NCBI GenBank assembly: GCA_964540995.1
Contig: CAZIOU010000001.1
Location: 6,742-70,741 of the forward strand
Origin: an uncultured Gammaproteobacteria bacterium
Lineage (GTDB): Bacteria; Patescibacteriota; Patescibacteriia; UBA1558; 2-01-FULL-52-15
Reading direction: 5' to 3'
DNA length: 64,000 bases
Positions 1 through 41,123 of this stretch are shown in pieces. The notes under the pieces are model-generated. The model saw nothing but the letters and a program-made list of their open reading frames with translations. It was not told the origin of the DNA and did not search any database. How positions within the stretch are numbered: the first letter of the stretch is position 1; every line of letters begins with the position of its first letter. Made by a program: the position numbers and the translations under genes.

Positions 1-3
1 AGA

Positions 4-2991: not shown

Positions 2992-2993
2992 AT

Positions 2994-3362
2994 ATGAATA
3001 TTAACGATTCTTCAAAAAAATTAATCAAGGAGGTTATTGAAACCTTTGCGTCTGAGGAAATTCAAAATCGAGCCTGGTTAAAGAAAGATCCTAAAATTCT
3101 TCTGGATCCTGAGGATTTTTTCGAGTGGTTCGGGGATATAGGTATCACAAAGAATGCAAAACCTGATTATTTGACGCAAGAGGAATGGGAATTAATAAAT
3201 AATTTCTTGAATGACCAAGAGAAATTTATTAATGATTATGGTGATTATGTATTTAATAATATAGGTCGCCATCTAGAACGGATGTTGACATTTGACCCAT
3301 GGATCGATTTTCGTGGCAAAGCTCAGAAAGTATTATTCGAGTTAGAGAAGTTGGGTTGGTAG
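2994..3362 (+). CDS. putative cognate immunity protein for the RHS C-terminal toxin
   Basis: 122-aa acidic ORF starting 3 nt after the RHS stop, AT-rich like the toxin tip. The position is typical of RHS immunity genes. No recognisable family. Confidence 0.45.
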   Translation: MNINDSSKKLIKEVIETFASEEIQNRAWLKKDPKILLDPEDFFEWFGDIGITKNAKPDYLTQEEWELINNFLNDQEKFINDYGDYVFNNIGRHLERMLTFDPWIDFRGKAQKVLFELEKLGW

Positions 3363-3381
3363 AATTTTAATCTACTATCCT

Positions 3382-3410
3382 ATGTATTGATTGATCACCT
3401 TGGCTCTAGT
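3382..3410 (+). pseudogene. short remnant resembling the start of an RHS core (YVLIDHLGSS), possible relic of a displaced RHS C-terminal cassette
   Basis: tatgtattgattgatcaccttggctctagt translates to YVLIDHLGSS, versus YVLTDHLGSSS in the intact RHS core at ~2020-2050. It stops after 5 more codons. Confidence 0.3.
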
Positions 3411-3722
3411 TTTTGGTTCAAAACATAATTTGTGATTCCTATCAAAAAACCCTCAAATCCCCAGAATTCCTCCCCCTAGGAATTCTTGTGGTTGTCGGCC
3501 TTATCTTACGCTTCTGGAATCTCGCTATCACCGAAGTAGCCTTCGATAATGCTACCAATACTTTTCGTGCGGTGGGATGGTCTGGGATCCAGGCTAGTTT
3601 CGAGGCGCAAGGTATAACGCCGAAACAAATTATCCCTGACAGTCTGGGCGCCGAAGCCTTCCGAGTATATTTCGTCGCACTGCGCTAGTCAGAGCGAAGC
3701 AAACTTGGTATAATAACCAAGT

Positions 3723-4172
3723 ATGAGCCCTGTCAAAGACAAGAAAAATATTATTCCTGCCAACGTTGCCTCTGCTCACAGAGTTCGACGTTTTTTTGTT
3801 GCTATTATTCACCAACAGTCATTCACCTTTCTCTTGTTAATACTAGTTATCGTTGGATTAGCTAGTTATTTCTATCCGGCCAGTCTCAAGCCATCGCAGC
3901 AAGCGCATATTGGAGATACGTTGGGTTGTAGCACTGCCAAAGCTAGTGATCGTCTGAAACAAACCCAGCTAAGAGCCAGCGATCAGCTCAAAGTACTGAT
4001 TAGTTTCCGTCAACAACCAAGTGCAGAGCAGATTCAGGGCTATGCATCACAAGGTATTACCTTATACCCTGATTCTTGGCTGTTTGATTATCTGATGGGC
4101 GAGACTTCCTATAGCCATCTATGCAATCTGTTATCTGATAACGCTATTACGTACGTTGATCTCGTAAACTAA
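3723..4172 (+). CDS. hypothetical membrane-anchored protein
   Basis: 149-aa ORF with one hydrophobic segment. A TATAAT box 12 nt upstream of the ATG (possible leaderless transcript). Its stop overlaps the pgk start (TAATG). Confidence 0.3.
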   Translation: MSPVKDKKNIIPANVASAHRVRRFFVAIIHQQSFTFLLLILVIVGLASYFYPASLKPSQQAHIGDTLGCSTAKASDRLKQTQLRASDQLKVLISFRQQPSAEQIQGYASQGITLYPDSWLFDYLMGETSYSHLCNLLSDNAITYVDLVN

Positions 4173-5332
4173 TGAAATTACGCACTCTCAAAGATATCAA
4201 GTCAGTCCGCGGACAGCGCGTATTGATCCGTCTCGATCTCAATGCGCCAGTTATCGGTGGTCACCTCGAATCGTCGGATTTGTGGAAATTACGAGCCTCG
4301 ATTCACACGGTAGAACATTTGGCCGAGCACGGTGCCAAGGTGATCATTGTGTCACATTTTGGTCGTCCGGACGGCAAGAAGGTTGTTGCTACCAGCTTAC
4401 GACCCATTATTCGTAAGTTTAGTCAGATGGTGGGGCGACCGATTGCACTCTGGTCAGATCATCCATCCAAGCTGGAAGCGAGAAGTAAGAAGCTAGAAGA
4501 AGGTCAGATAGTTGCCTTGGAGAATATTCGCTGGTATCCAGGGGAAGAGAAGAACGATCCTACGTTTGCCAAGACTCTAGCAGCGTTAGCAGACATCTAT
4601 GTTAATGATGCTTTCGGTGTTATTCAGCGCACGCACGCTTCGACTGTCGGCGTAGCCAAACTAGTGCCTTCGTATGCTGGATTTTTGCTTGAATATGAAG
4701 TCAAAGCGCTGTATAATGTAGTATCCCGTAGTAAACGGCCTATTGTTGTAGTTCTGGGAGGATCCAAGATTAGTACCAAGCTAGGACTGCTCAAAGTACT
4801 CCTAACCAAAGCTGATTTCATCCTTCTCGGTGGCGCTCTTGCCAACAATGTCTTGCAGGCGCGAGATGTCGAAGTCGGTAAGTCGCTGATCGATAAGGAC
4901 GCCAAGCTGTTACGGCAGTATATTTATAGCAATAAGCTCAAAGTCCCGATTGATGTCCGCGTAGCTACTTCACGTACGTCCAAGAGTCGGCTGACAGCGG
5001 TGTCACAAGTACGCAGTAACGAGATAATTTATGACATCGGCCCAGATACAGTCGAGTGGTATGCCAAAGTATTGCGTCATGCCAAGACCGTGATCTGGAA
5101 TGGCCCGTTAGGCTTATTCGAAGATCCGCGTTATGGTGCGAGTACACGGGAGCTGATCAAGATTTTGGCGCTGTCACAGGCCAAGGCCTACGTCGGCGGA
5201 GGAGAGACAGTCAAAGCTGTTTTGCAGTCGCGCTTGGAAGATAGTTTGCACTTTGTCTCGACCGGTGGAGGCGCGATGTTGGCCCTGCTAGAGAAGAATG
5301 ATTGGTCAGCGTTGAAAGTGTTGAAGAAGTAG
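4172..5332 (+). CDS. pgk: phosphoglycerate kinase
   Basis: 386 aa, typical PGK N-terminus (RVLIRLDLNAPV...) and overall length and motifs. Confidence 0.95.
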   Translation: MKLRTLKDIKSVRGQRVLIRLDLNAPVIGGHLESSDLWKLRASIHTVEHLAEHGAKVIIVSHFGRPDGKKVVATSLRPIIRKFSQMVGRPIALWSDHPSKLEARSKKLEEGQIVALENIRWYPGEEKNDPTFAKTLAALADIYVNDAFGVIQRTHASTVGVAKLVPSYAGFLLEYEVKALYNVVSRSKRPIVVVLGGSKISTKLGLLKVLLTKADFILLGGALANNVLQARDVEVGKSLIDKDAKLLRQYIYSNKLKVPIDVRVATSRTSKSRLTAVSQVRSNEIIYDIGPDTVEWYAKVLRHAKTVIWNGPLGLFEDPRYGASTRELIKILALSQAKAYVGGGETVKAVLQSRLEDSLHFVSTGGGAMLALLEKNDWSALKVLKK

Positions 5333-5337
5333 ATCGT

Positions 5338-5450
5338 TATTCGTTATTCGTTATTAGTTATTAGGGAGAACTCTCTTCCCGAATAACTAGTAACTAATGA
5401 CTAATCACATTCCCCAAATAACAAATAACTAATAACTAATAACTAATTCT
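5338..5450. repeat. AT-rich intergenic spacer built from inverted/direct copies of the TAACTAATAAC (GTTATTAGTTA) motif; probable terminator hairpin for pgk
   Basis: gttattcgttattcgttattagttattaggg...cccgaataactagtaactaa, then aaataacaaataactaataactaataactaat. The same motif recurs at 16163, 41241, 46923 and 46978. Confidence 0.5.
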
Positions 5451-6203
5451 ATGAACCAACTGACAGCCTGGCAGAAAACGTTACTTATCGTTACTGCCGC
5501 CTTCTTCCTACTCATGGGAGGATTCGTCAAATTACGCGAACTTAATTTTGTCGGTAAATCGCCTGATTTCCAGCCTACTATTTACGTCAGTGGCGAAGGT
5601 AAGGTGCAAGCCGTGCCTGATGTGGCCAAGATTAGCTTCGGTTACACAGTAACCAAGCCAACAACTGCCGAAGCCCAGAAAGATAATACCGACAAAATGA
5701 ATGCCTTCATCGCTGCCGTCAAGAAGGAAGGTGTCAATGATAAAGATATTAAGACTGCCAATTTCAATATCTATCCTGAATATAACTATGTTGATGGTCG
5801 ACAAGTACCTCGTGGTTATACCGTTAATCAGAATGTCGACGTGACCTTACGCGACACTTCCAAAGCGCAACGTCTGATCCAGCTGGCTGGTGAACAGAGT
5901 TTGAATCAAGTCGGTGGACTCAATTTCGTCGTCGATAACCAACAGAAATATTTAGACGAAGCGCGCGCTATTGCTCTTAAGCAAGCCAAAGCCAATGCCG
6001 AATCGATCGCCAAGAATGCCGGCTTCCGCTTGGGTCGTCTGATGAACTATTCCGAAAATACCCAACCCTATCCACAGCCAATGTACGCTGATAAAGGTGC
6101 TATGGGTATGGGTGGTGCCGCTTCGGTCCCAGCTCCAACCATCGCCGTTGGTAGTAACGAAATCTACGTTCAAGTCAGTCTAAATTACGAAATCAAGCAG
6201 TAA
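5451..6203 (+). CDS. SIMPL/DUF541-family secreted protein (26-kDa periplasmic immunogenic protein-like)
   Basis: N-terminal signal/TM segment, then VSGEGKVQAVPDVAKISFGYTV. Architecture is typical of PF04402. Confidence 0.6.
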   Translation: MNQLTAWQKTLLIVTAAFFLLMGGFVKLRELNFVGKSPDFQPTIYVSGEGKVQAVPDVAKISFGYTVTKPTTAEAQKDNTDKMNAFIAAVKKEGVNDKDIKTANFNIYPEYNYVDGRQVPRGYTVNQNVDVTLRDTSKAQRLIQLAGEQSLNQVGGLNFVVDNQQKYLDEARAIALKQAKANAESIAKNAGFRLGRLMNYSENTQPYPQPMYADKGAMGMGGAASVPAPTIAVGSNEIYVQVSLNYEIKQ

Positions 6204-28895: not shown

Positions 28896-30188
28896 GTGTA
28901 TAATAGCTATATGAGACCCATTATCACCAAAGTAATAAGCTTTTTAGCTCATCGGATCATCAGTGTCCAGAAGCCTTTTATCATTGGCATTACCGGCAGT
29001 GTGGGTAAGACTTCGACCAAAGAAGCAATTGCTACCGTGCTTAAGGCTCGTTATAGACTGCGAGCTTCGGCCAAGAGTTTTAATAATGAACTGGGGTTGC
29101 CCTTCACCATCATCGGTGTCGATGCTCCAGGCAAAGACCTCGGGGCTTGGTGGAGTATATTCAAGCAGGCTTTCGGCTTGCTACAGAAACGATCTGATTA
29201 TCCAGAATTGTTGGTGTTAGAAATGGGCGCTGACCGCGTGGGCAATATAACTGCCTTGACCAATCTAGCCCCGCTCAATATCGGTGTGCTGACAACCATT
29301 GGTCCTTCGCATTTAGAATTTTTTAAGACTATTGATAACGTTACCAAAGAAAAAAGTGTTATTTTTAAATCATTACCCAAAGACGGTTTAGCGGTGCTCA
29401 ATATTGACGATCCGATTATTGCCACGTTGACAGGTAAGGTTAGTGCTAAATTATTGACGTATGGTTTCCATCCCGAGGCCGATGTCCGTGCCAGCGATGA
29501 TACCTTGAGCCATCAGAATAACGCTTGGGGACTAGCGTTCAAATTGAACTATCGTGGCAACACAGTGCCGGTCTTTCTACCGCAGTCTGTGACTCGCGCC
29601 AATATTTTGGCAGCGTTGGCAGCGGCAGCTATTGGCTTGCATCAGGGGATGAATCTGGTGGAAGTGGCGCAAGCGTTGCAGCAATTCCAGCCCACAGCTG
29701 GCAGAGGCAGGTTAATTGAAGGACGCAATGGTTTATTGATTCTAGATGATACCTATAATGCCTCACCGCAATCGACCAAAGTTGCTCTGGCTAGTTTGCA
29801 GCGTTTGGCTGGTGAAATTAACGCTACTACGGCTGCTGTCCTAGGTGAGATGTTGGAGTTAGGCGATTATACTGTTCATGCGCATGAGGAGATTGGTCGG
29901 GCAGCGGCTGAAGCCAAAGTAGGACTATTGCTGGCAGTTGGTGAGCATGCTGAAGCTATCAGTCGGGGCGCTCAAGCTGCTGGTATGTCTCTGACTTCAA
30001 TAGTTACCCTAGCCACGTCTATCGCTGCTTTGGAATATCTGCAGAAACGTGACCTAGCTGGCACACTGCTTCTGGTCAAAGGTTCTCAAGGCACTCGCAC
30101 CGAACGCATTGTGCGTGGTCTGATGGCTGATCCGTCGCGGGCCGAAGAATTATTAGTTCGTCAGTCAGCCGCATGGTTACAGAAATAA
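28896..30188 (+). CDS. murF: UDP-N-acetylmuramoyl-tripeptide--D-alanyl-D-alanine ligase
   Basis: Mur-ligase P-loop GITGSVGKTSTKE, NIGPSHLEFF; 430 aa; dcw position after ftsI. Confidence 0.75.
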   Translation: MYNSYMRPIITKVISFLAHRIISVQKPFIIGITGSVGKTSTKEAIATVLKARYRLRASAKSFNNELGLPFTIIGVDAPGKDLGAWWSIFKQAFGLLQKRSDYPELLVLEMGADRVGNITALTNLAPLNIGVLTTIGPSHLEFFKTIDNVTKEKSVIFKSLPKDGLAVLNIDDPIIATLTGKVSAKLLTYGFHPEADVRASDDTLSHQNNAWGLAFKLNYRGNTVPVFLPQSVTRANILAALAAAAIGLHQGMNLVEVAQALQQFQPTAGRGRLIEGRNGLLILDDTYNASPQSTKVALASLQRLAGEINATTAAVLGEMLELGDYTVHAHEEIGRAAAEAKVGLLLAVGEHAEAISRGAQAAGMSLTSIVTLATSIAALEYLQKRDLAGTLLLVKGSQGTRTERIVRGLMADPSRAEELLVRQSAAWLQK

Positions 30189-31879
30189 TACAGGCCAGTG
30201 TTTATATAGTTATTCATCTAGCCCTAGGCTATGGTTGGTTTAGCTTCTGGCAGGGGAGAGGTAAATCAGCCATCGACAGTGTCTTGGCGAGTTTGCTTAC
30301 CGTACTGGCGCAGACTATTGCCGGCGTATTTTTGCTAGGATTGTTGGGACTATTCTCAACGCTTACTATCTGGCTGTGGCAAATTATTGTTATCGTTGGA
30401 GTTTATTGGATCAGCCGTAAGCAATTACTAGTATCATGGCGGCTTATCTTGAGACGATCATGGTATGACTATCTGTTCTTGGTTTTGCTTACAACGGTAT
30501 CTCTGGCAACGTTAATCTTATCCTTCCGTTCGGCTGATGTTTCCTTTGATAGTTTAAATTATCACTTACCGTGGGCAGCCTATCTGTTACAAGAGGGTCG
30601 TCTTGATTATTTCCAGACGCTGATCCCGTGGATCAATGTCTATCCCAAAGCGATCGAAGCTTGGCAAGCTTGGCATCTGGCTTTGTGGCACAACCAGTCT
30701 TTGTTGCAAGTTACTAACTTAATTTTCTGGCTCTTGGGATTTGGTTCGGTCTATGCCTTAGCGCGGGAGTTTGGTATTTCTCGTTTCATTTCGTTTGTGG
30801 CAGCTATTACCTATGCAGTTACGCCATTAACTATCTTGCAGCTGCGCACCAACTATATTGATTTGGCTTTGTCGTCATTGGTTTTGCTCTTACTCTATTG
30901 GTCAGTCAAGAAATTTGATGAGTCATGGTGGCTGTGGTCCATCACCGCCGGTATCCTGATCGGTAGCAAAGCCACGATGGTTATCTTGGTGGCGCTGGCT
31001 CTCGTAGTCAAAGTCGTCAGCGGTTGGACCAAGCCCTACAAATGGCCGTGGTATGTGCTAACGATTGCCGGCTTCGGCAGCTATTTCTACGCTCGCAATT
31101 GGTGGGCCAGTGGTACGCCGATCTATCCTATCGGGCCGAAGTTAATTTCTCTCGATCAATTATTATCCGGTTCACAAGCAGCGATTCTCAAAGGCAAGCC
31201 TATGTGGGAGCAGTTGTGGATTAATTTTACTACTGTCTACGGTAATTACAGTTATCAGATGAATCCGGGCGGATTTGGTTGGTTGTGGTTACTGATCTTA
31301 TTACCAGCTTTAATTATCTTTTTATTCTGGGGATGGAGACAGCGACAGTTCCGATTGATGACTGTGGTGCTAGCCCTTGTCATCGGATTTCTGCTTATGC
31401 CGGCTAATTGGTGGTTGCGCTATGGCTTATTTGTTGTCGCAGCTGGGAGCCTATCTCTGGCTTATATACTGGCTACATTGCCACATCATTGGCGTTGGGT
31501 GGGTTGTGGCATTGTTGTGTTATTTATTATCCATAGTTGCCTGATCACTGGTTTTAGTTGGCAACGAACAGAGTTGACGCGGTATTATCCGGAATTTGGA
31601 AGTTTAGCTGCTGTCCAACAAGCGGGTAGTGTCATTGCTTACGATAGTCGGTTACAGTTACCGTTTGTCTTGTGGAATCATGATCTATCCAACCGTGTAG
31701 TCTTCGTCTCGTCAGCTGATAAATCCTACGATCAATGGATGGCAGGTCTACGCGCTTCGAAAGTACAATATATCGTCACCAAATATCCCTCGTTGGAATT
31801 GCAGCAGATCGATAGTCATAAGGCTAATTTTGAGCTGCTGGCTAGTCAGGGGGATGTGAAGGTTTGGGCGGTGAAGTAG
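30173..31879 (+). CDS. polytopic membrane protein, possible GT-C-fold glycosyltransferase (family unassigned), occupying the position where mraY is usually found
   Basis: 568 aa, about 12 TM helices plus a C-terminal soluble domain. No MraY motifs (no NxxNxxDGIDGL or HHH). Terminator hairpin at 31905-31928. Confidence 0.5.
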   Translation: MVTEIIQASVYIVIHLALGYGWFSFWQGRGKSAIDSVLASLLTVLAQTIAGVFLLGLLGLFSTLTIWLWQIIVIVGVYWISRKQLLVSWRLILRRSWYDYLFLVLLTTVSLATLILSFRSADVSFDSLNYHLPWAAYLLQEGRLDYFQTLIPWINVYPKAIEAWQAWHLALWHNQSLLQVTNLIFWLLGFGSVYALAREFGISRFISFVAAITYAVTPLTILQLRTNYIDLALSSLVLLLLYWSVKKFDESWWLWSITAGILIGSKATMVILVALALVVKVVSGWTKPYKWPWYVLTIAGFGSYFYARNWWASGTPIYPIGPKLISLDQLLSGSQAAILKGKPMWEQLWINFTTVYGNYSYQMNPGGFGWLWLLILLPALIIFLFWGWRQRQFRLMTVVLALVIGFLLMPANWWLRYGLFVVAAGSLSLAYILATLPHHWRWVGCGIVVLFIIHSCLITGFSWQRTELTRYYPEFGSLAAVQQAGSVIAYDSRLQLPFVLWNHDLSNRVVFVSSADKSYDQWMAGLRASKVQYIVTKYPSLELQQIDSHKANFELLASQGDVKVWAVK

Positions 31880-31964
31880 GGGAAGGTTAAAATACTTAAT
31901 TAAAAACAAGCCTTTGTAGGCTTTTTTTAAATTTGTCCCTTATGGCTCTCTATCGTGGAAGATG

Positions 31965-32228
31965 TTAGAACTGCGGTATTGGAGCCTGTATATTGAAGTA
32001 ATGAAGAAGCCATCCGACAATGATTAGAAAAGCTATAGTCCCAACCAAAAAAACTAACCTACGATAGACATAACTTGCAACATCCATCAGGAACCGTTGA
32101 ATAAGCTTGATAAGAAGCCAAGCATAATACAGTGGAGGCACTACAACCAAATTGACGACGGTCATTAGAATATCAGTTTTTGAACGATAACTATTGCGCA
32201 TGTTTTTAAAATGTGGATTAACGGTCAA
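31965..32228 (-). CDS. small two-TM hypothetical protein downstream of the nucleotidyltransferase operon
   Basis: 87 aa with two hydrophobic helices; 67 nt after the nucleotidyltransferase gene on the same strand. Confidence 0.25.
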   Translation of the reverse strand: MTVNPHFKNMRNSYRSKTDILMTVVNLVVVPPLYYAWLLIKLIQRFLMDVASYVYRRLVFLVGTIAFLIIVGWLLHYFNIQAPIPQF

Positions 32229-32295
32229 GCTTATACCTTAAGAACTATTTGTCAAGTAACCGGGATGAATTCCGATAGGTATGACACTTGCTTTT

Positions 32296-33624
32296 CTATA
32301 AATAGCGCTTAAGAACTACATATTGTCTGGCTTTAGCAATACAGATTCCATTTTTGATAGCATAACATTCAACAAAATGCATGCCATTAAATTTGGTATG
32401 CTCAGGCATGTTACGCGTGTGATGATCTGTAATCTCTCCGCGCGGCTCTGGAGAATTATCATCATTTTTTACTTTCCATTTATATAAAATCAAATTCCCA
32501 GTGTTGTCTGTGATGGAAAAGTTGATTCTTCTATCTACTTCAATTTGCCCATTTTTATCTAAGACGATCTCTCTGAACCCACCCTGACGAGGGAGAACTC
32601 TCGCGGTGATATTAAGTGAAAGGCTATTATCTGTAAATGTTGGAATATGTTGATCGAATAGATACTCTTCAGTTTTGCTGACACGCTTATACCGTCTACT
32701 CTTAAGTAAATCGGATACACTTATTTGTCCAATGTCTTCCAAACCAATTAAAAAAGCATCACGTGAATAGATTATTGCGTCTCTCTCAATCTGTGATAAA
32801 TGAGCAATATAATCATCAATAAATTTATTTTGGTCAGCTCTATCGGGTATCTGTGGCCTGGAGATTAAATTAGGTAACCTAAAAAAGAATTCAAAAATAG
32901 CATCAGCTGCTGTGATAGTTTTATCCTCCATAAAAATCCTATAGATCGCCTGCTCAATATGGAAAGACTTTAACTTGAACCCTTGATCTGCCTCTTTACA
33001 GTTGTGTCTCCACCTTTTAACAAATTTCACTGCCTTTCTAAAATCCGAGTTCGTTTTATTCAGGTCAGTTGCGTCTTTTATGTATCCTTTAGGATCAGAT
33101 TTTAACCACCACTCATTCTCACTTCCATAGACTCTTGAAAGTTCATCATACCGTAAACTCCTTTTTTTCTTACTTACTTGAATAATCTCTGGTACCCAAT
33201 AAATATCATCGCCATAATCATTGCTATAGCCAGAAGTAAATGCTGGGACAATATCTACAGAAAACTTTTCTTCACCCCCATTCATAAAGGAAATGGTTAT
33301 TGAGTGAGATTGCTTTGCAAATTTTATTTGATAGCTGGTAGGATTTTCAAAATTATTTGATAGCTGGCTTTCTAACTTTGAAAGTATTGATCCGGGATCC
33401 AGATTTTCGGGATCAAATTTGCCGTTTATGTATAGTACATCAATGTCGTGAAGTGGTTTTGATGCTGTGAATCGGGCATACGAACCAATTAAAATACAGT
33501 TCACTCCCAAGGCAAGTTTTAAAGCAGCGTATACACTTGTCGCAAATACTTGTTCCCCATTAGACGGGGAGAGATTTGATTTGACGTAGTCACGGAGTTG
33601 GGAATTTAAACTATCTTTTGTCAT
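32296..33624 (-). CDS. cGAS/DncV-like nucleotidyltransferase (CD-NTase/OAS-like Pol-beta superfamily NTase) with a ~130-aa C-terminal extension
   Basis: G47-S48...D60-I-D62 (ILIGSYARFTASKPLHDIDVLYI), third acidic residue in SVDIVPA (D124, ~62 aa later, as in DncV D131/D133/D193). KFVKRWR helix motif typical of the OAS/cGAS/CD-NTase helical domain. AT-rich gene in an island. Confidence 0.55.
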   Translation of the reverse strand: MTKDSLNSQLRDYVKSNLSPSNGEQVFATSVYAALKLALGVNCILIGSYARFTASKPLHDIDVLYINGKFDPENLDPGSILSKLESQLSNNFENPTSYQIKFAKQSHSITISFMNGGEEKFSVDIVPAFTSGYSNDYGDDIYWVPEIIQVSKKKRSLRYDELSRVYGSENEWWLKSDPKGYIKDATDLNKTNSDFRKAVKFVKRWRHNCKEADQGFKLKSFHIEQAIYRIFMEDKTITAADAIFEFFFRLPNLISRPQIPDRADQNKFIDDYIAHLSQIERDAIIYSRDAFLIGLEDIGQISVSDLLKSRRYKRVSKTEEYLFDQHIPTFTDNSLSLNITARVLPRQGGFREIVLDKNGQIEVDRRINFSITDNTGNLILYKWKVKNDDNSPEPRGEITDHHTRNMPEHTKFNGMHFVECYAIKNGICIAKARQYVVLKRYL

Positions 33625-34138
33625 AGGGCGATACGAGTGCCAGATTAAGAAGAAGCGTTAAGAGACGTGCAGAGGAATTACACATTTCAAAATAGATATG
33701 TTGCTGAAACTTACTCATATGTTCGCTTGAGATTCTATTTTCTGGTTTCGCAAGGATTATCAACGGTATCTTTTTTACTTTTGCTGTCGCAACCAAGTCT
33801 GGGTAAAATTCGTATGAACCAGAGTATTCAGCCACGTAAATCGCAAAATCCTCGAATGTCTGTAATTGATCAAGTCCCGCTGAGATATCATAAACTCGCT
33901 CTACCTTTGAGAAAAGACCGTTCTTATTTAACATCTCCATTTCTGTTTCAAGCGCATCTTGATTTGTTTTTAGAAGATAAACTTTTCGCTTTAAATTTCT
34001 GAACATACGAATTTCTTTCTTAAAGAAAAAACGTAAAAAGACAAAACACGTGATTGTACCGATACTAAAATAGAATAAAAAAGTAAAGAGCGCATAAATA
34101 TCGAGTGCGGTCGTTATATTCTCCCAAGAGAAGCTCAT
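33611..34138 (-). CDS. small N-terminally membrane-anchored protein, translationally coupled to the nucleotidyltransferase (candidate effector or partner)
   Basis: 175 aa; a ~30-residue hydrophobic N-terminus (1-2 TM), then a ~135-aa alpha/beta-looking domain. Its stop overlaps the nucleotidyltransferase start by 14 nt. Confidence 0.5.
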   Translation of the reverse strand: MSFSWENITTALDIYALFTFLFYFSIGTITCFVFLRFFFKKEIRMFRNLKRKVYLLKTNQDALETEMEMLNKNGLFSKVERVYDISAGLDQLQTFEDFAIYVAEYSGSYEFYPDLVATAKVKKIPLIILAKPENRISSEHMSKFQQHIYFEMCNSSARLLTLLLNLALVSPYDKR

Positions 34139-34209
34139 ATTCGCGGTGTTAATAAATTAATTTTTCTCACAAGGGGGAGATATTTACACGATACCTCCCC
34201 CATTTATAC

Positions 34210-35421
34210 TTACTCAATCAGAGCTAACTTAAGACCCTCATAGCAGCCGCGCCACAAGGAAATCTCCTTACCTAATTTATTGGGATTTCTATGTTCAAGC
34301 GCTCTCTCGCAAACTCGCAGTGCCAATAAGGTTCCATGTTTCTCAAATACATCGAAAGGATTGTGTGACCATTCGTATCGATCGCCACGATCTTTAATAA
34401 GAGCTCGAAAAGCTGCAAGTATAGGATAGATAAAACCACTTGGAATCCCATAGTTAGAAGATTCGTCGATGAAGTAGAGATCATAACTGGCTTTCTTTTT
34501 GTAAGTAACACCAGTGAAACGACCAAATCTGCCGCCGCTCTTAAGCTCGGCCACATCCTTATTTGAATCGAGCTGATTAACACTCTTATTATAGAGTTTT
34601 GGCAGACCTTCATAGATCATATCCCTCAAACGCAAGATATCCTTAAGTAAAGGATACAATTTATTCATCTCTTTGTGGTTCTCACTGAAGTGATTTAACG
34701 CAGCAGCCTTTGAAACGTAGGCAACGGATGGTTGCCTATCCTGTCCAAAATTCTTTGCGTCAAAACAAATCAAATAGGAAATGATATCGCGGATATCAAT
34801 CGGTTTTTTTGCATCGTCAGAATACAATTCATTCTCTTTGAATGCTATAAGATCAAAATACGACTCTCCTCGCAAGGCATCTTTGAGTGGATTAAAATCA
34901 CCCTGTAAATTCATCAATGATTGGTCTTTGACCTGAGTAGATGTATTACGCGCGTCCACAATATCGACTATATCTTCGACCTCGCTGAAGCCTTCCATGA
35001 TTTCCAGCTTAAGGTATAGGCTATCTCTTTTTTCTGGCGGTAGATCATTCAACTCGTCGATTAAGATTTTACAGGTGTGACCACCATCAAGTAACCCATG
35101 CTTACTCTTATCAGTCATGGTGAGAGTTAAAACACCACGCTGATTATCAAATTCTATTTTGTCAGCCATCACTACAAGTCCGCGATTCTTAAACATAAAC
35201 ATGTCGGGGCTGTGTTCTGCTGATTCTGCAATTTTCTTTGCTACCCGAGATGTAGTCTTTGGATCTCGAGGGTTAATACCTCGCCAATCATAGAGGTCTT
35301 TAAGGAACAAATCGGCTTTTGCTATTGCCGAATAAAAACGCACACCTTGTTGGTCAAGGGGTGTTTCAAGTCTCCTTACGGAGAATGTATCTATGTTGAG
35401 ATTCATATAATTATGACTCAA
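34210..35421 (-). CDS. hypothetical 403-aa protein with a ParB/DGQHR-like motif (GLLDGGHTCKILI); first gene of the nucleotidyltransferase operon
   Basis: hhDGxH[RT]xxhh resembles the DndB/ParB-Srx DGQHR motif. No other family recognised. AT-rich. Confidence 0.45.
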   Translation of the reverse strand: MSHNYMNLNIDTFSVRRLETPLDQQGVRFYSAIAKADLFLKDLYDWRGINPRDPKTTSRVAKKIAESAEHSPDMFMFKNRGLVVMADKIEFDNQRGVLTLTMTDKSKHGLLDGGHTCKILIDELNDLPPEKRDSLYLKLEIMEGFSEVEDIVDIVDARNTSTQVKDQSLMNLQGDFNPLKDALRGESYFDLIAFKENELYSDDAKKPIDIRDIISYLICFDAKNFGQDRQPSVAYVSKAAALNHFSENHKEMNKLYPLLKDILRLRDMIYEGLPKLYNKSVNQLDSNKDVAELKSGGRFGRFTGVTYKKKASYDLYFIDESSNYGIPSGFIYPILAAFRALIKDRGDRYEWSHNPFDVFEKHGTLLALRVCERALEHRNPNKLGKEISLWRGCYEGLKLALIE

Positions 35422-35588
35422 GTTATTTAATTAATAACTGTGACCCCGACTTAAGGTTACCCTGTAAGCCGATTTAAGAGTCTAAGGGTTGCCCCTGTAG
35501 ACAATTGAGTTTTTAACGATCACTTGGAATTTAGTATCTACCTTTTGTAGAATTTGTCAAGGGTCAGGCTTTATGTTAGCCTGCGTCT

Positions 35589-35843
35589 ATGCCTCAAGAT
35601 CCAACATTCAAAGAAGATGGTAAGCGTCGTATATTCTGTGCCGCTTGCAGGCGTCACATCACTGATAGCTACCTGGGAGAAAAGAATACACGAAATATCC
35701 GCTGTAAAGGCTGCAAGTCAGTAAACATTGTATTCCCTCCCAGAAAAGGTGATATAGATGGCCAGAAGGTAATTTTGTTTGGTCCAGGCCAATCCATATT
35801 TACTGCTGATTTGACAGAATCCGAAATAGAAGATAGTCTGTAA
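35589..35843 (+). CDS. Com-like zinc-ribbon protein (Mu Com translational-regulator family)
   Basis: IFCAACRRH...NIRCKGCKSVNIVF matches the Com pattern (RCPHCNKLL...IKCPRCKALNHV). Divergent from the defence-like operon. Terminator hairpin at 35893-35943. Confidence 0.45.
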   Translation: MPQDPTFKEDGKRRIFCAACRRHITDSYLGEKNTRNIRCKGCKSVNIVFPPRKGDIDGQKVILFGPGQSIFTADLTESEIEDSL

Positions 35844-36815
35844 TTGACTTTAAAAACCGAACAGGGTTATAAAGGGTCGAAAGACCAAAGAGAACCCGCA
35901 AAGCATATACCTTCTCGCAAGGCATAGCTTTGCGGGTTTTTTGTTTGTCATGGGGATTTAGAAATGCTGATTTATCCCCATGAGTCAGCATTTTTTAGTT
36001 CAGTAATGTTACTCAATGTTACCAGTAGAAGCTATAGAAGAATTCAAGATTATCTACTCAAAAATACTTGGGGTTGCGTTGGATACCCCTGAAGCGCTGA
36101 AAAAGGCCGAAAATCTTTATAATCTGATTAAAGTCGTTTATCAAAAACCCATAGATCCCCAAAGAAAAACAGGGGTATAGGGACTACAAAGATGATTTGC
36201 AGAAACCAAAATTGTTCAAAAAAATAGCCAAACAAAGTCAAACAAAAATCGTCGCGGATACGGCCCGCCCGACGTTAAATAGGCTGGACTGCACACTGGG
36301 GAGCGGACTACCTTACATCAGATAAAAACTGATGCCTAACAATTCCGCACGTCACTTTTTTTAAGCAGGTGACGGAGGGAAATAGTTAACTTATGAGTAT
36401 CTATGAAAAATCTAAAAGAAAATCAAGGTTTAGCGATCTTGTTAGGATTGATCCTAAGCAAAAGCTATTTCTCCGTAAGCATAAGGACTGTCGGACTATG
36501 GCGGGGTTCTTGGATAAGATCATTAACCGCTATAAACGGGACATGCGTAGCGCTACAAAAGATTACAAAAACCGACAAAACCGGAGTGTTGATTTCAAGT
36601 CTTAATAACCCCACTTTTAGGGCCAATTATAGAGAAAGAGACTCTGAAAAAGTGTTGGTTGATTTAACCACTTTTGTAGTTTATAATGTTGATACAATTA
36701 AATATCGCACGCTAATGCATTCAGAAGCCCTCATCAGGCCTTGCATTAGCGTGCGGAACGATAGCAATATCGTTAAAACTGGTGGGGGCCTTTTAGTTCC
36801 CACGGAAAGGAAAAT

Positions 36816-37322
36816 ATGAACGAACAAAATCAAGCGAAATCAGGCAAGAAGTGGTATCAAAAATGGTGGGTTATAGCCCTTCTGCTGATGTTTTTCTATG
36901 GGCTCGGTAAAATGGCTCTGGAGCTGCCAAAGACCTCTACAGAGGCGTCACAATCGGCCACAGAGGCTCCCCAAAAAGTTGCCTATGAGGTAACAAAAGA
37001 ATGGGCAATACCTAATGGCGGTAAAGGGATGGTAATAGTGCTTTCGCCGGATAAGGTTAATCTCTCTGACATGGAACGATTGGGAGAGCAATTACGTGAG
37101 GCGGCTAAGTCCGACAGGGTTGGAAATGTGGTAATTTTTTCCGATAAGGCCACTGCTCAACAATATGATAATTCATTGAATTTAATTGAAGAGGAAAAAG
37201 TCAATTACCTCAAGCACTTAGTTGGGGTTTATAACAAAAACGTGAATACTGGTAGTCATGAATTTAGTATTTACTTGGATGGAATTGATGGAGCTGTAAC
37301 AAAAAAGATTCAATACGAATAA
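36816..37322 (+). CDS. hypothetical membrane-anchored/secreted protein
   Basis: 168 aa; RBS ggaaaggaaaat; N-terminal TM (WWVIALLLMFFYGLG); 6 nt before the recombinase gene. Confidence 0.5.
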   Translation: MNEQNQAKSGKKWYQKWWVIALLLMFFYGLGKMALELPKTSTEASQSATEAPQKVAYEVTKEWAIPNGGKGMVIVLSPDKVNLSDMERLGEQLREAAKSDRVGNVVIFSDKATAQQYDNSLNLIEEEKVNYLKHLVGVYNKNVNTGSHEFSIYLDGIDGAVTKKIQYE

Positions 37323-37328
37323 TGTAAA

Positions 37329-38987
37329 ATGTCATCTAAGTATTTTATCTACGCGCGCAAATCCTCCGAAGCTGAAGATCGGCAGGTTTTATCTATTGAG
37401 TCTCAAATCGATGATTTAACTGCTTTAGCAAACAAGCAGGGTTATCAGATTGCTGACATTTTGACTGAGGCAATGTCTGCGAAAGCTCAGGGTAGGCCTA
37501 TCTTCACATCTATGATAGAGAGAATTACAGCTGGTGAGGTAAGGGGTATTATTTGTTGGAAAGTTGATCGGCTGGCGCGAAATATGATAGATGGCGGTTG
37601 GGTTATGGATAGTCTTCAAAATGGTGTTATAGAGCATATAGTGACCCCTGAGCGCGAATATAGGCCCAAAGATAATGTACTACTAATGTCTGTCGAATTC
37701 GGAATGGCTAATCAGTTTATTCGTGATCTAAGCTCAAATGTGAAACGTGGCATACGAAAGAAAATAGAAAAAGGTCAGCTCCCTGGCGTCGCACCTTTGG
37801 GGTATATGAATCAAAAGAATCGAGAGACGGCCGAGAACCAGATTATGCCTGACCCTGATCGTTTTCAGATGATGCGGATGCTTTTTGATGAATTCTTAAA
37901 GGGTACTCACACAATTCGTACCCTGCAGGGGTTGGCACATGATTGGGGTTTCCGTAGTCCACAGAAAAGAAAAGTCGGAGGAAACTTTATGGGATCAAGT
38001 ACTGTCCACAGAATACTCACTAACCCCTTCTATTGTGGTTTTCTAAGATTTAATGGAGACATTCATAAAGGCTCACATCAGCCCATGATTACTGTAGACG
38101 AGTTTGATCGTATTCAGTTAATACTTGGGAGAAAAGGGAAGCCTCGGCCACAAAAGCATAAATTCCCATTTACAGGGATTATGGAGTGTGGCGAATGCGG
38201 AGGCAGTGTGACGGCAGAGATAAAGAAAAAGAGCTTAAAGTCAGGCGAAGTAAAATTCTACACTTACTATCATTGTACAAAGCGACTTAATCCTATGTGC
38301 ACTCAAGCATGTATTGAAACAGCCGAATTAGAGAAACAGATTGAGAGCTACTTAGAATCCATCACTATTCCTGAAGAGTTTAAAGACTGGGCTATTAGAT
38401 GGCTCAATAAGCTTAACGATCAAGAGATCAACCACAGGTCAACAATTTATATAAACCAGCAAGATACGAGAAATAAAATTCAGAACGATGTTGATGAATT
38501 AACAAAGATGAGGTTTAGAAATCTCATCAACGATGAAGAGTATATAAAACAAAAAAACCTACTTCTTAAAGAGTTGAGAAGTATGGACGAAAGACTACGA
38601 GATACTGAAGATCGTGCGTCTAAGTGGCTGGAGCTATCTGAAAAGACTTTCGATTTAGCTTGCTATGCAAAGTCATGGTTTCAAATTGGCGATATAGAGC
38701 AACGTCGCATGATTTTGACCTCACTTGGTTCGCACCAAGTGTTATTTAACAAGAAACTTACAATTACCTTGGATAAACCATTGTCAATCATCAGTGATAC
38801 GGCTGAAGAGATACGCGCAGATTGCACTCGGTTAGAACCAGAGAAAATACTGTCAGGACAAACAAAAAACAGAGCTTCAGACTCCATTTCTTCTCGATGG
38901 CTCCCCACACGGGACGGAGTTCGAACCTTTTCTAATTCAACCATGAAGCCTGAATCTCGTCTAGGCAGGCAGAAAAGAAAGGTATGA
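37329..38987 (+). CDS. large serine recombinase (phage-integrase type, resolvase/invertase catalytic domain + recombinase + zinc-ribbon + coiled-coil)
   Basis: FIYARKSSEAEDRQ...IICWKVDRLARN (catalytic Ser domain); CGECGG...YYHCTK zinc ribbon; coiled-coil C-terminus; 552 aa. Confidence 0.85.
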   Translation: MSSKYFIYARKSSEAEDRQVLSIESQIDDLTALANKQGYQIADILTEAMSAKAQGRPIFTSMIERITAGEVRGIICWKVDRLARNMIDGGWVMDSLQNGVIEHIVTPEREYRPKDNVLLMSVEFGMANQFIRDLSSNVKRGIRKKIEKGQLPGVAPLGYMNQKNRETAENQIMPDPDRFQMMRMLFDEFLKGTHTIRTLQGLAHDWGFRSPQKRKVGGNFMGSSTVHRILTNPFYCGFLRFNGDIHKGSHQPMITVDEFDRIQLILGRKGKPRPQKHKFPFTGIMECGECGGSVTAEIKKKSLKSGEVKFYTYYHCTKRLNPMCTQACIETAELEKQIESYLESITIPEEFKDWAIRWLNKLNDQEINHRSTIYINQQDTRNKIQNDVDELTKMRFRNLINDEEYIKQKNLLLKELRSMDERLRDTEDRASKWLELSEKTFDLACYAKSWFQIGDIEQRRMILTSLGSHQVLFNKKLTITLDKPLSIISDTAEEIRADCTRLEPEKILSGQTKNRASDSISSRWLPTRDGVRTFSNSTMKPESRLGRQKRKV

Positions 38988-39157
38988 ATCTGTCAAAGGA
39001 GGACCTTGACGAACTCAAGGAAATTTATTTTAAGGAGACTAGAAAGAGGCTTACGGATGACGAAGCTCTAGCTATGGCACGTCAGCTGTTTCGAGTCTAT
39101 AGGGTTTTATATAGTAGAAAGCCAAACCAGCCAGCTGACCCCATTCTAGACAAATAA
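38984..39157 (+). CDS. small ORF (57 aa) translationally coupled (ATGA) to the serine recombinase; possible accessory/directionality factor
   Basis: MNLSKEDLDELKEIYFKETRKRLTDDEALAMARQLFRVYRVLYSRKPNQPADPILDK. Below the 60-aa cutoff of the ORF track. Confidence 0.25.
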   Translation: MNLSKEDLDELKEIYFKETRKRLTDDEALAMARQLFRVYRVLYSRKPNQPADPILDK

Positions 39158-39245
39158 CCCAATCTCTGGTATTGCTACTTTGTTGTTAATTCTCTCCAGC
39201 CTTCTGCCTACGCATGGTGCGCAGTCAGCATTTCTGGAGGGAATT

Positions 39246-39822: not shown

Positions 39823-40818
39823 CTAGGCGCGACCCTGACGCCTAGCGTCAGACCATGGCTTCTCATATTTCTCGTAATACTCTCTTTCAAGTAATCCGGG
39901 GTGGAGACTTCCATCAAGCATTTTCTGCATAACTTCTCTGTTACTACCATAAGCAAACTCAATAGCATGGGACGCAATCAGAATGTTGAACAACCTCACG
40001 ACCTTATCTTGCGCGGAAAATAGTGCCTCTCTCTTGATCTTCGTTGAACCCATCGGATATGTCAATTGAATTAGAATCTCTGGCGTGAGTGCGAAGTATT
40101 TATTTCTATCTAAAAAAGTTGGACCATAAAAAGTCTTTGGTGGCAGCCACCACTCCACGATTGGAGAGTCAGAAGTGATGAATTGCTCATTGCCCTTAGC
40201 AATATATATTTTCCATTTCATTCCATAGAACATATTCGCGAAGCCCGGACCACCAAACCCTAAGTGTGTGGTCATAAATTTGAGATGTTGCGCGTTACTG
40301 ACACGCAAATCCCAGTTATCACTTCTCATAAACTCTAAGAGGTCATCTTTTTCCTTCTCTGTCATGACTTTCCCGGTATCCTTCAGATATTTGTTAATGG
40401 TCTCACGATCAAACCAGTTAATCATAACTTTCGCTGCCTGCTTTTCATAAGATTGGATTTGCTCTCTCATGGCTGGTGAACGTAGCCACATCAAACTCAT
40501 AAAGACTGAAAGAATGTATTTGTCCGTGTCGTCTAAATATTGATAGTCAACAATCTTCTTAATGATTACTGGAAGTTCCTTGGCGATCGCATCCTCAAAT
40601 TGATTTAGCCAGGATTCAACTTGCTGTGACACCTCATCTGGCTCACCTGTTCTTCCGGCATAATAGTAGTGTTTATAACCAATGCCTGACGTCGGTTTCG
40701 GATTGCTTAGACGTTTATTCTTTAGGTCTAGCGGATGCAGCTTACCATCTTCATCAGTAAACCTTCTCAGATAGAACTGAGGCACATAATGTTGTTTTTT
40801 TGTTTCCGTGTCCGCCAT
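39823..40818 (-). CDS. DUF4238-family protein
   Basis: N-terminus KQHYVPQFYLRRF, typical of DUF4238; 331 aa. Confidence 0.55.
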   Translation of the reverse strand: MADTETKKQHYVPQFYLRRFTDEDGKLHPLDLKNKRLSNPKPTSGIGYKHYYYAGRTGEPDEVSQQVESWLNQFEDAIAKELPVIIKKIVDYQYLDDTDKYILSVFMSLMWLRSPAMREQIQSYEKQAAKVMINWFDRETINKYLKDTGKVMTEKEKDDLLEFMRSDNWDLRVSNAQHLKFMTTHLGFGGPGFANMFYGMKWKIYIAKGNEQFITSDSPIVEWWLPPKTFYGPTFLDRNKYFALTPEILIQLTYPMGSTKIKREALFSAQDKVVRLFNILIASHAIEFAYGSNREVMQKMLDGSLHPGLLEREYYEKYEKPWSDARRQGRA

Positions 40819-41048: not shown

Positions 41049-41123
41049 TGGTGACCCTACCGGGAATCGAACCCGGATTGCAAGGTTGAGAACCTTGTGT
41101 CCTAACCGTTAGACGATAAGGCC
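41049..41123 (-). tRNA. tRNA-Glu (anticodon CUC), CCA encoded
   Basis: Hand fold: acceptor GGCCUUA/UAGGGUC, D-stem GUCU/GGAC, anticodon stem CAAGG/CCUUG with loop UUCUCAA, T-arm CCGGG-UUCGAUU-CCCGG, A73, CCA. Confidence 0.85.

Follow-up and report, generated by a model that had tools for sequence, protein, structure and literature searches.

A probable Type I CBASS pair and a separate AIPR gene on a small serine-recombinase element of a patescibacterial genome

The region between positions 31965 and 35421 of a 64,000-nucleotide stretch of contig CAZIOU010000001.1 (positions 6,742 to 70,741, forward strand; assembly GCA_964540995.1, deposited as an uncultured Gammaproteobacteria bacterium and placed by GTDB in the Patescibacteriota), hereafter the window, contains four minus-strand open reading frames (ORFs), all of which were confirmed in place. 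A first-pass annotation made from the sequence had presented them as a three- to four-gene operon, possibly an undescribed signalling-based defence system, composed of a DGQHR-like protein, a small transmembrane (TM) protein, a nucleotidyltransferase and perhaps a further two-TM protein. We conclude with high confidence that the region holds a catalogued Type I pair of CBASS, a form of antiphage signalling based on cyclic oligonucleotides, together with a separate gene of the known AIPR family, and not a new multi-gene system. The window very probably carries these as two independent defence modules, the cargo of a small serine-recombinase element. The apparent undescribed multi-gene signalling system is therefore resolved as a false lead, and the one under-studied part that merits experimental attention is the sensor domain of the CBASS effector. 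The family to which this effector belongs has more than 1,200 members, is covered by no Pfam model and lacks a solved homolog, and we could find no biochemical characterization of it. It prevails among the CBASS loci that we recovered from Patescibacteria, in which defence has been little studied.

The cyclase and its membrane effector

The gene at positions 32296 to 33624 (minus strand) encodes a protein of 442 aa with an N-terminal nucleotidyltransferase core and a C-terminal, Ig-like AGS-C domain (approximately residues 318–437). [quoted passage not shown] The match to the PADLOC Cyclase model PDLC00785 (E = 1.2e-165) covers model positions 1–442 of 443, the Pfam AGS_C model is matched at 3.3e-14 (53.4 bits against a gathering threshold, GA, of 26.7), and the sequence relatives found in the PDB are CD-NTases only, comprising CdnC (6.6e-8), one chain of CdnD and a number of others whose deposited name is just ‘Nucleotidyltransferase’. 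When the cyclase was aligned with 12 homologs of 43–59% identity, the residues of the catalytic GS...DxD...D signature (G47-S48, D60-I-D62 and D124) were invariant in all 13 sequences, as is proper to a CBASS cyclase, a cGAS/DncV-like nucleotidyltransferase with the signature GS...[DE]x[DE]...[DE]. Fusion to an Ig-like AGS-C domain has been described in approximately 40% of Type I cyclases (preprint, 10.1101/2023.05.21.541620). Residues 353–438 of the window protein, within the AGS-C part, also match phrog_17525 (5.3e-22), a phage family of unknown function; AGS-C-like domains therefore occur in phage-encoded proteins too.

Directly upstream lies the gene for a membrane protein of 175 aa (positions 33611 to 34138, minus strand). 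As had been noticed in the first-pass annotation, its stop overlaps the start of the cyclase gene by 14 nt (33611–33624, minus strand); read from the sequence, the cyclase ATG is embedded in the Tyr-Asp codons (...TAT GAC...) of the upstream gene, and the overlap likely serves translational coupling. The generality of this arrangement was examined in related loci, 93 of which came from scans of representative genomes and metagenome contigs, with more added by look-ups of closer relatives; six-frame ORFs of 111 loci were screened by hidden Markov model (HMM) search. The cyclase was found in 104 of the 111, the membrane protein gene stood directly upstream of it in 92 of these 104, and the identical 14-nt overlap was present in 83 of the 92. 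Once the cyclases had been merged at 95% identity, 83 non-redundant clusters remained, in 75 of which the pair was retained; of the eight left over, five end at a contig edge, the cyclase of a sixth is fragmented, and L062 and L063 show no effector match within ~1.2 kb upstream. The pair occurs across Patescibacteria and Alphaproteobacteria, and the cyclase operon includes an effector gene, as a CBASS operon does. Genes for Cap2/Cap3 (E1/E2/JAB), HORMA/TRIP13 or type IV components were found neither in the neighbouring ORFs searched with Pfam, PADLOC and NCBIfam nor in the related loci; the absence of adjacent Cap2/Cap3, HORMA or TRIP13 genes therefore places the pair in Type I. The likeness to Type I CBASS that had been proposed at the outset is confirmed, both genes matching PADLOC CBASS models, but the accompanying statement that no described architecture fits is not, since Type I systems often consist of a CD-NTase with AGS-C beside a TM effector of small size.

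The structure model of the 175-aa protein consists of a TM helix (residues 2–48) followed by a cytoplasmic alpha/beta domain (residues 52–169) with a five-stranded, flavodoxin-like (receiver-like) fold. No Pfam model is matched, whereas two PADLOC models are: C3a59/TM (PDLC01057, 1.8e-14) and the Effector ‘1TM’ (PDLC00664, 4.6e-7). The corresponding gene in related genomes encodes a protein of 166–205 aa with an N-terminal TM segment and a common C-terminal ...RLLNDI...SYEKK motif; effectors of this main family match PDLC01057 and PDLC00664 at about 1e-60 and 1e-50, respectively, and additionally match PADLOC Mem_04 (1e-5 to 3e-8). Clustering placed 26 of the 93 loci in the sub-branch to which the window effector belongs, and profile–profile comparison (hhalign) aligned this sub-branch with the main family over 130 columns (93% probability, E = 3.5e-7). 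In sequence membership, its N-terminal TM helix and its globular domain of ~130 aa, the window protein is thus a divergent member of the ‘1TM’ effector family, and together with the recurrent pairing this upholds the earlier proposal that it is the membrane effector of the nucleotidyltransferase.

A profile search recovered 1,241 members of the effector family, with no Pfam domain on any of those listed. Four polar residues are invariant (R44, K120, N154 and R158) and no acidic residue is; a true phospho-receiver was rejected for want of an invariant acidic residue or conserved phospho-acceptor Asp in the family. Structural comparison of the 175-aa protein, which the first-pass annotation had proposed as a check, yielded the flavodoxin-like model, for which Foldseek returned no match at E <= 1e-3 and nothing beyond generic alpha/beta folds of three layers (REC, SIS, DNPH1); by sequence, the protein retrieved from the PDB no more than two unrelated chains (E = 1.2). 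By analogy with other CBASS effectors, we infer that the cytoplasmic domain is a nucleotide-binding sensor. We hypothesize, tentatively and as something rather less probable than its contrary, that the flavodoxin/receiver-like domain would constitute a distinct class of cyclic-oligonucleotide receptor, separate from SAVED/CARF, STING and the Cap15 beta-barrel, common to Type I CBASS and to accessory membrane proteins of type III CRISPR systems and abundant in Patescibacteria, with the window copy as a divergent sub-branch. If this were true, the flavodoxin-like receptor would represent a new mechanism of ligand-gated membrane disruption within a known type of system.

The neighbourhood of the pair in related loci deserves separate mention. 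Among its recurrent neighbours, a divergent LexA-like gene is the most frequent (22 loci); N6/N4 methyltransferases follow with 15, serine recombinases with 10, the window included, and a second, minimal cyclase with 9. The LexA-like gene, at times fused to an N6/N4 methyltransferase, was seen in 18–22 related loci (e.g. L009:6702-7367, L013:5399-6061, L018:5720-6346 and L014:6086-7951), mostly divergently transcribed, ending 470–850 nt upstream of the cyclase start and adjoining the effector gene; the window has none. This association could reflect SOS-linked regulation, or merely a common neighbourhood of restriction-modification (RM) and defence-island genes. The second cyclase, a minimal CD-NTase of 257 aa that matches PADLOC Cyclase PDLC00803 (9e-77), follows the AGS-C cyclase in the closest relatives (L014:9859-10632, L019:4803-5576 and L001:8289-8891), giving a two-cyclase, one-effector operon in nine loci. 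It is absent from the window, and the region downstream of the window cyclase was rejected as a remnant of it on finding no similarity. In a Henriciella locus (L012:3269-6932) the same CBASS pair stands with a serine recombinase beside genes for a 633-aa protein with an OLD-family-ATPase-like N terminus and a 593-aa helicase-like protein, which by eye resemble a Gabija-like pair; here too the setting is that of a defence island.

The AIPR gene and the weighing of alternatives

The first gene of the minus-strand series (positions 34210 to 35406) encodes a protein of the AbiU1/AIPR family. Translation from the ATG at 35406 gives 398 aa, the length of the protein database entry (P0133), and an upstream TTG at 35421 would give the 403 aa of the first-pass annotation; the shorter form is the more likely. 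The family assignment rests on Pfam PF10592, matched over residues 50–368 with a score of 105.8 bits where the GA is 25 (E = 4.7e-30), so that the protein, which the first-pass annotation could not place in a known Cap family, belongs to a known family. The ParB/DGQHR-like core recognized in it at first reading was, by contrast, well seen: the N-terminal domain has a ParB/sulfiredoxin (Srx) fold with a GLLDGGHT motif, which together explain the DGQHR-like motif, and the C-terminal half is helical. AIPR proteins have been described with an N-terminal HEPN domain; in this protein of ~395 aa Pfam finds the AIPR domain only, and no N-terminal HEPN domain was seen, no dedicated HEPN profile or structural test having been applied. 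A PDB sequence search with the protein returned nothing. Its 678 homologs are of ~394 aa and share ~45% identity.

The AIPR gene ends 71 nt before the effector gene starts, and this spacer contains an 11-bp stem-loop (34173–34201, minus strand; –19.8 kcal/mol, z = –2.9 against shuffled sequences), which may serve for weak termination, attenuation or RNA processing. At the other end of the series, the ORF first recorded as 87 aa is a two-TM gene of 66 aa whose ATG lies at 32165 (31965–32165, minus strand; P0253 in the protein database). Among 1.84 billion representatives, its homologs were its own sequence and a single relative (P0254, 44% identity), which is located in L031, a locus with a serine recombinase 75% identical to that of the window. 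This sole relative travels there with the recombinase backbone and with a different cargo, a KAP NTPase, and the 66-aa gene was therefore assigned to the mobile-element backbone, at its left end, and not to CBASS.

Several results weigh against our assignment and have to be set beside those that carry it. The cyclase falls just under the Pfam SMODS threshold (23.9 bits; GA 26.5) and well below the cut-off of 200 for the NCBIfam CBASS_cyclase equivalogs (NF041117, 86 bits; NF041116, 53.8). We read these scores as divergence between clades and not as non-membership, because the PADLOC PDLC00785 match runs end to end; the models in question cover other cyclase clades. The window effector, for its part, forms a divergent branch, being ~20% identical to the main family, with a weaker match to the 1TM model and with the C-terminal motif NSSARLL where the main family has NFRGRLLND; and the Foldseek search disclosed no solved structure in which a flavodoxin-like effector domain binds a cyclic nucleotide. 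Lastly, no U-tract terminator separates the AIPR gene from the CBASS genes, and because the spacer hairpin lacks a canonical U-tract the three genes may be co-transcribed here.

This last point bears on the possibility of a composite system that would unite the three or four genes. In it the AIPR protein would cooperate with the CBASS pair as an extra sensor or second effector, and the small TM protein would be an accessory. All four genes share one strand, and their spacers are short (71 and 67 nt) and contain no canonical terminator; upstream of the AIPR gene stands a promoter-like site, and the small gene is followed by a terminator. However, the search of related genomes that had been suggested for the gene trio went against it: the AIPR HMM matched in none of the 104 cyclase loci (816 kb covered), a set that comprises 83 non-redundant clusters, of which 45 extend by 1.5 kb or more on the upstream side of the effector, the side on which the AIPR gene is positioned in the window, and a tblastn search with the protein (as AIPR403) was likewise without a match, so that linkage of AIPR to CBASS was rejected. 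Conversely, no CBASS was present in the three distinct contexts of AIPR homologs that were examined, where the gene is solitary. Homologs of the small gene are absent from all related CBASS loci, its one relative belongs with a recombinase backbone, and an 11-bp hairpin intervenes between the AIPR gene and the pair. We therefore regard a composite system as extremely unlikely. On the evidence of sequence and gene context, the AIPR gene is an independent single-gene abortive-infection module that is not part of CBASS, and its adjacency to the pair is a one-off co-cargo arrangement.

Two further alternatives accept the pair but read its function differently. It might signal by inhibition as in Hailong or Panoptes, a constitutively made nucleotide holding the effector closed until depletion by phage opens it. 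The two-gene layout, TM protein then nucleotidyltransferase, is that of HalA-HalB, and tight coupling would ensure that the nucleotidyltransferase is present whenever a potentially toxic membrane protein is made. The first-pass comparison with Hailong holds for gene layout but probably not for the enzyme, which matches CBASS CD-NTase models over its full length and carries AGS-C; tested Type I CBASS operons bearing AGS-C protected Escherichia coli against phage (10.1101/2023.05.21.541620), and in the PDB copy searched, whose inclusion of Hailong is unconfirmed, the nucleotidyltransferase matched nothing but CD-NTases and the TM protein nothing but the two unrelated chains. Inhibitory signalling is on these grounds very unlikely. 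As for a housekeeping second-messenger pathway of Patescibacteria, serving for instance membrane or osmotic signalling in place of phage defence, the family is very common in the reduced genomes of this group (the candidate phyla radiation) and the effector fold is receiver-like. Yet the distribution is patchy over unrelated phyla, the genes match defence-system HMMs and are located on low-GC recombinase elements and near RM systems, Gabija-like and other defence genes, and the receiver-like domain lacks a conserved phospho-acceptor Asp. We consider this the least plausible of the alternatives. A defensive Type I CBASS pair, with the AIPR gene as a separate module, is the reading that we retain.

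The mobile element and its setting

The two modules lie in a trough of low GC content (0.36–0.41 over 32–39 kb, against ~0.46 in the flanks), and GC profile, flanking Pfam annotation and homology to L031 together delimit a low-GC integrative element of ~7.2 kb at approximately 31930 to 39160. The serine-recombinase island recognized in the first-pass annotation is thereby substantiated. On the left the insertion is bordered by cell-wall genes, namely those for a Mur ligase and a 568-aa membrane protein, and on the right by a segment of normal GC content. The remainder of the element is a backbone of plus-strand genes (35589–39157), defined by Pfam, PHROG and homologs in L031, that runs from a gene for an 84-aa Zn-ribbon protein (35589–35843) through p54 (36016–36180), p70 (36393–36605) and p168, a 168-aa TM protein (36816–37322), to a large serine recombinase (37329–38987; Pfam Resolvase, Recombinase and Zn_ribbon_recom, PHROG integrase at 1.8e-75) and p57 (38984–39157).

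The sister element L031 (positions 1–6201) was retrieved in the opposite orientation to the window; once it is flipped, all backbone genes except p57 have clear homologs there in the same order, since besides its recombinase L031 encodes homologs of p168, p70, p54, the Zn-ribbon gene and the 66-aa gene. Nucleotide homology between the window and L031 begins at ~31949, close to a bidirectional terminator-like hairpin found by consensus scan at the left edge of the element (31908–31923). The slot that holds the AIPR and CBASS genes in the window is occupied in L031 by a gene for a KAP NTPase of 1,019 aa. Judged from this single sister element, the family looks like one with an exchangeable slot for defence cargo, and the window and L031 together offer a clean example of the movement of defence genes in reduced genomes. 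A repeat search found no direct repeats of at least 10 nt flanking the island; such repeats are usually absent with serine recombinases, and their absence is hence uninformative. No relatives were found in the INPHARED GenBank phage records (tblastn) or in a scan of IMG/VR, and there is therefore no evidence that the system is phage-borne.

The 84-aa gene had been called Com-like. It has two CxxC pairs, but the Pfam Com model is not matched and the zinc-ribbon matches are weak (E above 0.05), and the label was rejected. Its conservation in L031 (32% identity) instead assigns it to the backbone of the element, where it may be a regulator.

Two genes beyond the element were also noted. Between the Mur ligase gene and the island, the 568-aa protein (30173–31879, plus strand) looks polytopic from its sequence and matches no Pfam model at E <= 0.1; it probably resembles glycosyltransferases and belongs to the cell envelope. 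Just beyond the recombinase element on the other side, in a second low-GC patch (0.41) and beside tRNA-Glu(CTC) (41049–41123, minus strand), is a gene for a DUF4238 protein (39823–40818, minus strand; Pfam 5e-40, PADLOC DUF4238-Pers 2.3e-15), which may be a further defence gene in a separate islet.

Proposed mechanism and comparison with known systems

Our analysis bears on family memberships, catalytic residues, linkage or its absence, folds and mobile context, and the following working model extends it by way of established CBASS biology. The cyclase would stay inactive in the absence of a phage cue. Among the cues implicated in the activation of other CD-NTases are prohead proteases and capsid-maturation proteins of phages. 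Once activated, it would make a cyclic oligonucleotide, which would bind the flavodoxin-like cytoplasmic domain of the co-translated single-pass effector, and the effector would then oligomerize, compromise the membrane and so abort the infection. The AbiU1/AIPR-type protein, built on a ParB/sulfiredoxin-type NTP-binding fold, would act alone, and the 66-aa membrane gene, as part of the element, would stand outside both modules.

The likeness to Hailong is probably one of layout only, both being operons of two genes, one for a TM protein and the other for a nucleotidyltransferase. Hailong consists of the HalA ion channel and the HalB nucleotidyltransferase, which constitutively makes an oligodeoxyadenylate as a negative regulator, whereas the window enzyme is a CD-NTase with AGS-C that matches CBASS cyclase models end to end in the PADLOC release of 2023, a release that may predate Hailong models. 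The AIPR protein resembles AbiU1/AIPR (PF10592; MzaE of the MZA system) in its core, its motif and its fold. AbiU1/AIPR is an abortive-infection family related to DndB's N-terminal domain, and the kinship of the core to that domain fits the GLLDGGHT motif and the ParB/Srx fold. The window protein differs in being a short form that comprises the AIPR core only, with no match to MzaE (13 bits; cut-off 1050) or to any PADLOC model.

More than 40% of CBASS effectors are membrane proteins, TM effectors being the largest effector class, and within this class the window effector may be compared with Cap15 and Cap14. All three are small membrane-anchored proteins encoded beside a Type I cyclase, for which disruption or permeabilization of the membrane on activation by the cyclase product is established or, in the window, predicted. 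Cap15 senses by a beta-barrel and Cap14 by a SAVED domain; the window effector has instead a five-stranded flavodoxin/receiver-like alpha/beta domain, and no sequence or fold match to either protein was seen. A connection to membrane proteins of type III CRISPR systems appears in the PADLOC matches: all members of the effector family, the window's included, match C3a59, and the main family also matches Mem_04, described in PADLOC as two TM helices at the N terminus followed by a globular domain that is possibly a diverged CARF. These matches suggest a shared membrane effector module that senses cyclic oligonucleotides, with the differences that the partner in the window is a CD-NTase and not Cas10 and that the window effector lies below the reach of Mem_04.

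The closest counterpart is Type I CBASS with a ‘1TM’ effector, a class that goes back to Millman et al. (2020) and is taken here as it appears in the papers that use its classes. We found no biochemical study of any member of this class in the literature. The window shares with it a two-gene operon without Cap2/Cap3 or HORMA/TRIP13, a CD-NTase with the GS/DxD/D signature and a C-terminal AGS-C domain, and an effector of ~170 aa in which an N-terminal TM segment precedes a small globular domain, both genes matching PADLOC HMMs; it differs in that its effector belongs to a divergent sub-branch, marked by the NSSARLL motif.

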